Below, piece after piece: positions 5,982-7,036 of a DNA stretch of 7,144 bases (position 1 is its first letter; every line of letters starts with the position of its first letter). The position numbers and the translations under genes were made by a program. The notes beneath the pieces were generated by a model. It had not been told where the DNA came from. It saw nothing but the letters and a program-made list of their open reading frames with translations, and ran no database searches. The stretch lies in the IMG/VR virus record IMGVR_UViG_2703718811_000004, one strand, 5' to 3'. The stretch comes from a virus (taxonomy: Duplodnaviria > Heunggongvirae > Uroviricota > Caudoviricetes).

Positions 5982-6860
5982 TCAGCGTAATCTGCCTATG
6001 CGAACAGCCAGTCGTCCATTCTGATCATAAACCTCAATTTTATCATTGCGGATCACCAGTCCTACATTCTGATTAGAGTAACGAATTGTCAGTTGCCCTT
6101 GTGACGTAACACTGAAAAGGCCTCCAATATTCAGGTTACCCTGAGAATCAACCTGAAAGTTTCCGTTCTGAATAACGGCACTCCGGATAACTGGCGAAGT
6201 GATACTTACCCCGGCTTTTACCTCATCCGCCACAACCTTCCGCGACACCAGTGTTTCAATCACCGCGTCATAAATCATCGCTTTCGGGATCACAACCTTG
6301 CCACCTGATACCGCAAACGGATAGGCGGTGTTATCCGGGTTGTTCGGGTCAAAGACAAACAACTGCGACGCAGAAATTGCAACCTGACTTACAGGCCTGC
6401 CTTCACTGTCTTTTCCGGCGACAATCCCGATCCCCGCAGTGATACCATCAACTCCCGCTTTTTTTGACCACATTGCCAGAAACGCCTCACCGCCTTCTTT
6501 ATCCAGTTTAGTGATGCGCTTGTCGACCTCATTAAGCGATTCACTGGTTGACGAATCCAGTGTGCTAATGCGGGTTTCAATACCACCAATCGTTCTTGTC
6601 GTTTCTTCCCTGAGAGTCCCCACAACTTCGGTTGTCTTAATTGCAGCATCCTTTACAGCCTGCCCCTGCGCGTTTTTTATTTCTTTACGCAGCTCGGACA
6701 CAACCGGCGACTTTGCAGCCTCATCGCGGATCTGGTCAATGATGGCCTTCACGCCGATCTGTGTTTGCCGTCTTTGCACTGTCAGATGCACTCTTCGCAC
6801 TGGCTGCTGCACTTTCTTTTGACTGTGTGGCCTGAGTGTTTTTTGTCGCCGTGTCTTCAT
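5982..6860 (-). CDS. Phage tail-fibre / host-specificity protein, C-terminal portion (lambda-J-like DUF1983-type region plus about 100-aa distal tip domain). Probably the 3' part of a frameshift-disrupted gene.
   Basis: ORF-track protein. The region EAFLAMWSKKAGVDGITAGIGIVAGKDSEGRPVSQVAISASQLFVFDPNNPDNTAYPFAVSGGKVVIPKAMIYDAVIE follows the same motif spacing as lambda J's C-terminal segment (...SAMWGVKM...YVAGIGL...QFLVAANRIAF...MFVAQGNQIFMNEVFL), recalled from memory. The first about 35 residues of the listed ORF (MKTRRQKTLRPHSQKKVQQPVRR...) look non-native; the fibre-like sequence continues upstream in another frame. Confidence 0.75.
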   Translation of the reverse strand: MKTRRQKTLRPHSQKKVQQPVRRVHLTVQRRQTQIGVKAIIDQIRDEAAKSPVVSELRKEIKNAQGQAVKDAAIKTTEVVGTLREETTRTIGGIETRISTLDSSTSESLNEVDKRITKLDKEGGEAFLAMWSKKAGVDGITAGIGIVAGKDSEGRPVSQVAISASQLFVFDPNNPDNTAYPFAVSGGKVVIPKAMIYDAVIETLVSRKVVADEVKAGVSITSPVIRSAVIQNGNFQVDSQGNLNIGGLFSVTSQGQLTIRYSNQNVGLVIRNDKIEVYDQNGRLAVRIGRLR

Positions 6861-7003
6861 TCAGGCGACGAATATTGGCAAGGTCATCAGCCACATTATT
6901 CTGTATCTGCCGGAAATCTGTCAGCAGTTCTCCGGGTATGCTAACCTCAACAAGACTGCGGCGTAACGGCAGCCGACAGGCCGTATTTGATTTTGGTGTT
7001 CAT
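6861..7003 (-). pseudogene. Frameshifted 5' portion of the tail-fibre gene (ancestral start probably ATG at plus 7001-7003).
   Basis: Minus strand from ATG (7001-7003): MNTKIKYGLSAAVTPQSC then stop. One frame over (+1) it continues ...LVEVSIPGELLTDFRQIQNNVADDLANIRRLNEDTATKNTQATQSKESAAASAKSASDSAKTA, an Ala/Ser-rich fibre-like sequence with no start codon of its own, ending at TGA (plus 6737-6739). It overlaps the 5' end of the 5982-6860 ORF, so a second +1 shift must occur around 6745-6775. All three minus-strand frames contain stops within 7000-7036, so this stretch next to the IS is non-coding. Confidence 0.45.
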
Positions 7004-7036
7004 GGATATATTAAATATTCAGCCGCTGTCCCTGGC

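Follow-up and report, generated by a model that had tools for sequence, protein, structure and literature searches.

A seemingly frameshifted tail-fibre gene beside an insertion sequence is very probably a deletion scar built from three gene fragments in an Escherichia coli prophage remnant

Does the phage DNA at positions 5982-7036 of a 7,144-nt viral sequence (IMG/VR record IMGVR_UViG_2703718811_000004) hold one tail-fibre gene broken by frameshifts, or pieces of several genes? The whole 7,144-nt stretch, which we call the window, is the reverse complement, base for base, of an entire short-read draft contig (LOIL01000075.1 in assembly GCA_001607685.1). A sequence-only reading had proposed that a single fibre-like protein, beginning at ATG 7003 and ending at a stop at 5982, is spread over three frames by two +1 frameshifts, next to an insertion sequence (IS). 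We find that 5982-7036 very probably consists of the leftover ends of three phage genes, encoding a lysozyme, a tail fibre and a tail-tip fibre, brought together by two large-deletion joints. With equally high confidence we regard this interval as a non-functional scar in the remnant of a Shiga-toxin-type short-tailed prophage (Sepvirinae, 933W/P27-like). Genes for lysis, packaging, the head and the fibre have been lost from the locus, and no functional tail-fibre gene is left, so the earlier proposal that the fibre gene is inactive holds.

On the minus strand of 5982-7144 there are three protein-like stretches in three different frames, each +1 relative to the preceding one. The first begins MNTKIKYGLSAAV at ATG 7003 and, with its out-of-frame tail, reads MNTKIKYGLSAAVTPQSC up to a stop codon. 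The second includes LVEVSIPGELL and SAKTA (..LPLRRSLVEVSIPGELLTDFRQ...SAKTANTDRREGHH) and ends with a stop at 6736. The third runs from TQIGVKAIIDQ (..TQIGVKAIIDQIRDE) to GRLR, with its stop codon at 5982-5984. The three frames, the ATG at 7003 and the stop at 5982 are therefore as the sequence-only reading described them, but the one coherent protein is not: when compared with the translations of intact genes, the three stretches are found in three separate proteins, and translation and Pfam assign them to three unrelated genes. The fragments keep the order and orientation that they have in the intact phage, and both fusions between them are out of frame.

As a reference we used the Stx1c short-tailed (Sepvirinae) prophage located at ynfG in E. 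coli sequence type 866 (ST866; NZ_CP077646.1). Its genes are arranged in the order stx1c, esterase, holin, lysozyme, lysis protein, terminase, portal, capsid and adaptor, then tail fibre, Gp38, a hypothetical gene, tip fibre, a 92-aa gene and a 205-aa gene, and lastly Lom, Hok, a YadA-like gene, five small genes and a giant LPD5 gene. Base-by-base mapping divides the window into six segments that are colinear with ST866 and that contain two mismatches overall.

The segment next to the IS is the start of a lysozyme (endolysin) gene. Its 72 nt (7036-6965; ST866 4795402-4795473, 0 mismatches) are 100% identical to the start of the prophage lysozyme in 588 genomes of E. coli; in these, the coding sequence (CDS) annotated as lysozyme has its start 33 nt into the match. 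The native region upstream of lysozyme accounts for 33 nt (7004..7036, minus strand; ST866 4795402-4795434) and lysozyme codons 1-13 for the rest (6965..7003, minus strand). These codons read MNTKIKYGLSAAV and are identical to ST866 up to 6965; the intact ST866 translation begins MNTKIKYGLSAAVLALIAAG. ATG 7003, which had been taken for the start of the fibre gene, is in fact the native start of the endolysin gene. The remainder of that gene is deleted: 13 of its 177 codons are left, and the catalytic domain that follows the N-terminal hydrophobic segment is missing.

The middle segment is a 203-nt piece of the collagen-like tail-fibre gene (6765..6967, minus strand; ST866 8661-8863, 0 mismatches), covering codons 89-154. 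It aligns to residues 89-154 of the 645-aa tail-fibre protein of phage Stx2a_F723, 3' of the CarboxypepD_reg-like N-terminal domain and 5' of the collagen repeats. At the DNA level, 6971-6747 matches the collagen-like "tail fiber protein" gene, which in the same phages is situated about 5 kb upstream of the tip-fibre gene. The intact fibre protein has four Pfam domains (CarboxypepD_reg, Collagen, Phage_fiber_2 and Phage_fiber_C), whereas the fragment has no Pfam match and hence none of the four; with 66 of 645-760 codons left, every recognisable domain has gone.

The third segment begins in the tail-tip fibre gene, which in intact phages is 1,269 bp long and encodes a protein of 422 aa (Stx2a_F723_78, WP_000197192) with a Phage_Tail_Tip domain (PF09327) that resembles the C-terminus of lambda J. 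Positions 5982..6767 (minus strand) correspond to the last 261 codons of this gene, codons 162-422, plus the stop, and are 100% identical to many Stx phages and prophages. When 5900-7144 was searched by megablast, the tip-fibre gene and the gene after it were matched by 6767-5900 only, at 100% identity. The fragment still carries PF09327 (E = 1e-11; score 45 bits, cut-off 22), but codons 1-161 and the native start are absent, and the DNA upstream of codon 162 comes from another gene. It is a 3' fragment and not a gene.

Relative to ST866 the window contains five joints, which we number D1 to D5. At D1 (6965..6967), between the lysozyme and tail-fibre fragments, 11,349 bp are missing, and the two sides overlap by GTT (TGCnGTT when extended). 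This deletion took the remainder of the lysozyme gene together with Rz, terminase, portal, capsid, adaptor and codons 1-87 of the fibre gene. At D2 (6765..6767), between the tail-fibre and tip-fibre fragments, the gap is 4,757 bp against ST866 and 4,472 bp against phage Stx2a_F723, with an overlap of CAA. From there the window is colinear with ST866 through the YadA-like gene (window 6767-2149; ST866 13618-18236; 2 mismatches). The remainder is LPD5 sequence in three segments (window 2152-838, 841-26 and 27-1, corresponding to ST866 21429-22743, 23055-23870 and 25154-25180), bounded by D3 (2152-2149; 3,196 bp missing, overlap AACC), D4 (841-838; 315 bp missing, overlap CAAC) and D5 (27-26; 1,285 bp missing, overlap TA).

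These coordinates bear directly on the idea of a single tail-fibre gene that starts at 7003 and is interrupted by two 1-nt (+1) frameshifts, or by homopolymer or sequencing errors. The succession of three protein-like segments in successive +1 frames is what one would see in such a case, but we give it next to no chance, because the segments belong to three genes, separated by 11.3 kb and 4.8 kb in intact phages, and there is no intact homologue with which all three are colinear. The first shift had been placed at 6945-6950, where tct-tgt-tga seemed to mark a 1-nt deletion. The real change of frame is at 6965-6967, and the sequence at the proposed site, cgc-cgc-agt-ctt-gtt-gag, is identical to the intact fibre gene; it looks shifted because fibre sequence is being read in the lysozyme frame. 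For the second shift the proposed position (6745-6775) was right, since it contains the joint at 6765-6767, but its nature was not: it is a 4.8-kb deletion joint and not a 1-nt indel. Alignment to intact homologues, which had been suggested as a way of locating the indels, yields the two multi-kilobase gaps between the three genes. Nor does a 1-nt sequencing error account for the data, as identity to the reference stays at 100% in each segment until the joint is reached, and D2 is present in two other assemblies (see below). We also considered a frameshifted pseudogene, which we rejected because the segments align to three genes rather than to one gene with 1-nt indels, and programmed ribosomal frameshifting, which we rejected because each intact homologue is a single open frame and the changes of frame coincide with deletion joints.

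To assess the overlaps at the joints, we simulated 200,000 random joints within the same prophage. In 56% of these there was no overlap (0 nt), and the probability of an overlap was 0.055 for at least 3 nt and 0.018 for at least 4 nt. The observed overlaps at D1-D5 are 3, 3, 4, 4 and 2 nt, a set whose joint probability by chance is approximately 1e-7. We therefore interpret D1-D5 as microhomology-mediated deletions.

Two other assemblies contain D2-D5 base for base. The Logan assembly of SRR8097454 matches window 6794-1 with 1 mismatch, and contig ABCZAI010000075.1 of GCA_020319715.1 matches window 6971-1 with 2 mismatches. Because these four joints are shared with two other assemblies, they are inherited and are not an artefact of assembly. 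The GCA_020319715.1 contig does not have D1; past the position equivalent to 6971 it continues into an intact 5' end of the fibre gene (a GTG start and codons 1-154, followed by D2) and the adaptor gene. Exact searches for the D1 and D2 joint sequences in collections of genome, viral and metagenome contigs gave 0 matches, and BLAST searches with 6650-7045 and 6940-7144 against 5,426 complete E. coli genomes recovered neither joint and no junction between the IS and lysozyme. The full D1-D5 set occurs in none of those complete genomes or of the contig collections searched. It is a lineage marker, and not a new kind of thing.

Three observations count against reading the interval as a genuine scar next to an IS. 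D1 and the IS junction are seen in one short-read draft contig alone, with no second assembly; that contig stops inside the IS, 108 nt in, which is where the window ends; and there is no IS or IS remnant at any of the joints D1-D5. The first two raise the question of whether D1, the lysozyme-fibre joint at 6965-6967, is a chimeric misassembly in a draft contig that ends in an IS, as might also be suspected from the absence of D1 in the GCA_020319715.1 relative. We consider this very unlikely. The 3-nt overlap at D1 (6 of 7 in the extended match) is far below any k-mer size used by assemblers, the two sides of the joint are colinear with the phage and oriented as they are there, and the microhomology signature of D1 is that of D2-D5, which are verified in independent assemblies. 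In addition, the window's contig was reported from 2 samples.

Apart from the shared joints, the GCA_020319715.1 contig has a deletion of its own of about 7.2 kb at 1286/1287 (ST866 4797734 to 6802), in which terminase, portal and capsid have gone. Identity to ST866 is no more than 88-90% in its lysis region, where a Bor gene is present.

The IS was placed correctly by the sequence-only reading, with its end at 7036/7037. Positions 7037..7144 (plus strand) are the left end of an IS3-family element (IS629/IS1203-like), with the terminal repeat TGAACCGCCCC starting at 7037 and the orfA ATG at 7091-7093; the orfA translation begins MTKNTRFSPEV. We assign it to the IS629/IS1203 group from its repeat beginning with TG, the orfA that follows and its identity of 94-98% to known copies (94% to the end of IS1203 in strain ATCC 43889, and 98% to copies annotated as "IS3 family transposase"). 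Homology to the region upstream of lysozyme begins exactly at 7036, leaving 33 nt between the IS and ATG 7003. In an E. coli O121 strain (NZ_CP176678.1, 3292056-3292241) a different IS3-family element lies directly beside a lysozyme gene. Among the complete genomes searched, this is the nearest match to the window across the IS end and lysozyme start, with 83.5% identity, and the position of the element is similar.

How might the scar have formed? D1-D5 probably arose by microhomology-mediated illegitimate recombination, for which the candidate routes are RecA-independent replication slippage, template switching, and end-joining after breaks or after IS3-family excision of the kind described for the IS-excision enhancer (IEE). 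The four joints D2-D5 would be the older ones, because they are shared with relatives, and D1 and the IS insertion would have come later, because they are found only in the window's contig. That the fragments are 100% identical points to a recent event and not to selection. IEE is a documented route in E. coli with IS629-type elements: it performs end-joining on microhomologies of 2-6 nt, and IEE-dependent excision of IS629 is reported to result in deletions of a few nt to more than 40 kb (PMC9943667). The window's deletions resemble IEE-associated and other microhomology-mediated deletions in E. coli (Kusumoto 2011, cited in PMC9943667; Calvo 2023), given their microhomologies of 2-4 nt, their sizes of 0.3-11 kb and an IS3-family element close by. 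They differ in that the window's joints themselves have no IS, and classical RecA-independent slippage fits equally well. Because no joint carries an IS, an IEE-driven origin of the deletions is one possibility among several.

A different history is that the prophage was shredded in a burst, with the deletions made in one or a few multi-step template-switching episodes (like microhomology-mediated break-induced replication or fork stalling and template switching, MMBIR/FoSTeS, or by IEE end-joining). D3 and D4 provide evidence of this type. The 15-mer CCCGCAACCAGAATC that spans D3 (window 2149-2160) pre-exists in intact LPD5 at the exact left breakpoint of D4 (ST866 22736-22750), and the start of the retained segment (AACCAGAATC) is repeated at the D4 left breakpoint too (window 838-845). 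For a random joint, the probability of such a 15-mer match anywhere in the prophage is p = 0.0034. The pattern suggests a common origin of D3 and D4 in a single multi-step template-switching event, whose path could have been a jump forward, the copying of 6 nt, a jump back, and a second departure from the same site. The 15-mer at the D4 breakpoint, and the presence of only 2 base differences in 7 kb despite five deletions, support a burst, but as an account of the deletions as a whole we think it unlikely. The cluster of microhomology joints, and the linked pair D3/D4 in particular, could interest students of deletion formation, although it opens no new question. A motif, GCAACC, recurs at the left breakpoints of D2, D3 and D4 and was weighed as a recognition site; at D3 and D4 the shared repeats of 9-10 nt explain it better.

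The joints have also created small and chimeric open reading frames (ORFs). An 18-aa ORF (6947..7003, minus strand) starts with lysozyme codons 1-13, continues out of frame into the fibre fragment (TPQSC) and stops at TGA. A 292-aa ORF (5982..6860, minus strand) has 31 initial codons from the fibre fragment out of frame, and the rest is tip fibre 162-422. Neither these two nor a 52-aa ORF has a Shine-Dalgarno sequence, and none is found before ATG 6860 or before GTG 6752, an internal start in the tip-fibre part. In exact-protein searches of a collection of 15 billion proteins there was no match to the 292-aa ORF or to versions of it from four alternative starts upstream of D2, nor to the 52-aa ORF or the 164-aa fibre::tip ORF of GCA_020319715.1. 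A scan of 5900-7144 for promoters and terminators found nothing above shuffled sequences: a sigma-70-like match at 6924-6895 precedes the 292-aa ORF, but with two matches in all the region does not exceed the shuffles, which have a mean of 1.1 (sd 1.2). From these features we infer that the small and chimeric ORFs, including the 292-aa ORF, are probably by-products without function. A functional chimeric fibre was considered and ruled out, since both fusions are out of frame and all the partner genes are deleted.

Could the truncated tip-fibre ORF (5982-6860, or from the internal GTG) nevertheless have been kept for a function, for example as a domesticated receptor-binding fragment? Its 261 C-terminal tip-fibre codons are free of mutations and still open, and other E. 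coli assemblies contain annotated versions of the tip fibre truncated to 239-256 aa. We find this scarcely credible even so. The 100% identity extends across the whole remnant, which points to recent deletion rather than to purifying selection; the ORF lacks a Shine-Dalgarno sequence at either start; the sigma-70-like matches of the region are no more numerous than in shuffles; and the N-terminal 161 residues have been lost together with every virion partner. The 256-aa protein of other strains, which corresponds to a start at GTG 6752, is on record in a different context, where it comes from a tip-fibre gene split into 166 and 256 aa. The scar is better explained as non-functional.

That split was seen in two other assemblies (L005 151-1418 and L006 2149-3416), in which two ORFs, one of 166 aa and one of 256 aa, are called for the tip-fibre gene, with 4 nt in common. 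It may be a genuine point disruption of the tip-fibre gene in those strains.

Downstream of the scar, the sequence-only reading's picture of a decaying prophage with intact cargo is borne out. The 92-aa gene (5689..5967, minus strand), which lies 3' of the tip-fibre gene in all relatives, the 205-aa gene (5066..5683, minus strand), Lom and the 46-aa Hok/Gef-family toxin ORF (3869-4009, minus strand), situated between the Lom and YadA-like genes as in intact relatives, are all identical to ST866. The entire window departs from ST866 at just two bases, 3113 and 3164, both within the YadA-like adhesin gene (2315-3517, minus strand). One changes N135 to K and the other is synonymous, leaving the protein identical to its ST866 counterpart at 396 of 397 residues. 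This trimeric autotransporter has YadA_anchor and YadA_head domains, and its similarity to EibD is only distant.

The remainder of the window (1-2179, minus strand) is the remnant of the giant LPD5/LPD38 gene, with the three deletions D3-D5 relative to ST866. At D3, codons 1-9 of a 117-aa gene (ATG 2179) are joined in frame to codon 15 of LPD5. D4 is in frame and D5 is out of frame, and the resulting LPD5 ORF runs past the end of the contig; in the SRR8097454 assembly a product of more than 727 aa is called from it.

Loss of modules, insertion of IS elements and retention of cargo are typical of defective lambdoid prophages. Those of E. coli, such as the prophage pool of enterohaemorrhagic O157, Rac and DLP12, resemble the window in having deleted lysis and morphogenesis modules, insertions of the IS629/IS1203 type, and moron or cargo genes that are kept (lom, hok/gef, adhesin). 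The window differs from them in that it packs five joints into 7 kb and departs from an intact relative at just 2 bases. The locus is a case of ordinary prophage decay and domestication, in which the structural and lysis modules were lost, an IS was inserted, and the morons (the 92-aa and 205-aa genes, Lom, Hok and the YadA-like trimeric autotransporter) were kept. Of these, Lom, Hok and the YadA-like adhesin are surface and toxin-antitoxin cargo. The prophage is probably no longer able to make particles. What the locus mainly offers is a correction: a phage gene that seems frameshifted in raw sequence can instead be a series of gene pieces brought together by large deletions, and telling the two apart needs alignment to intact relatives.

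The same module has also been damaged in E. coli ATCC 43889 (O157). At 547-2484 of the locus compared from this strain, the collagen-like fibre gene is annotated in pieces, as an N-terminal pseudogene plus a C-terminal CDS, and a copy of IS1203 truncates the gene upstream of the tip-fibre gene. The fibre-gene damage in ATCC 43889 is an independent decay of the module.
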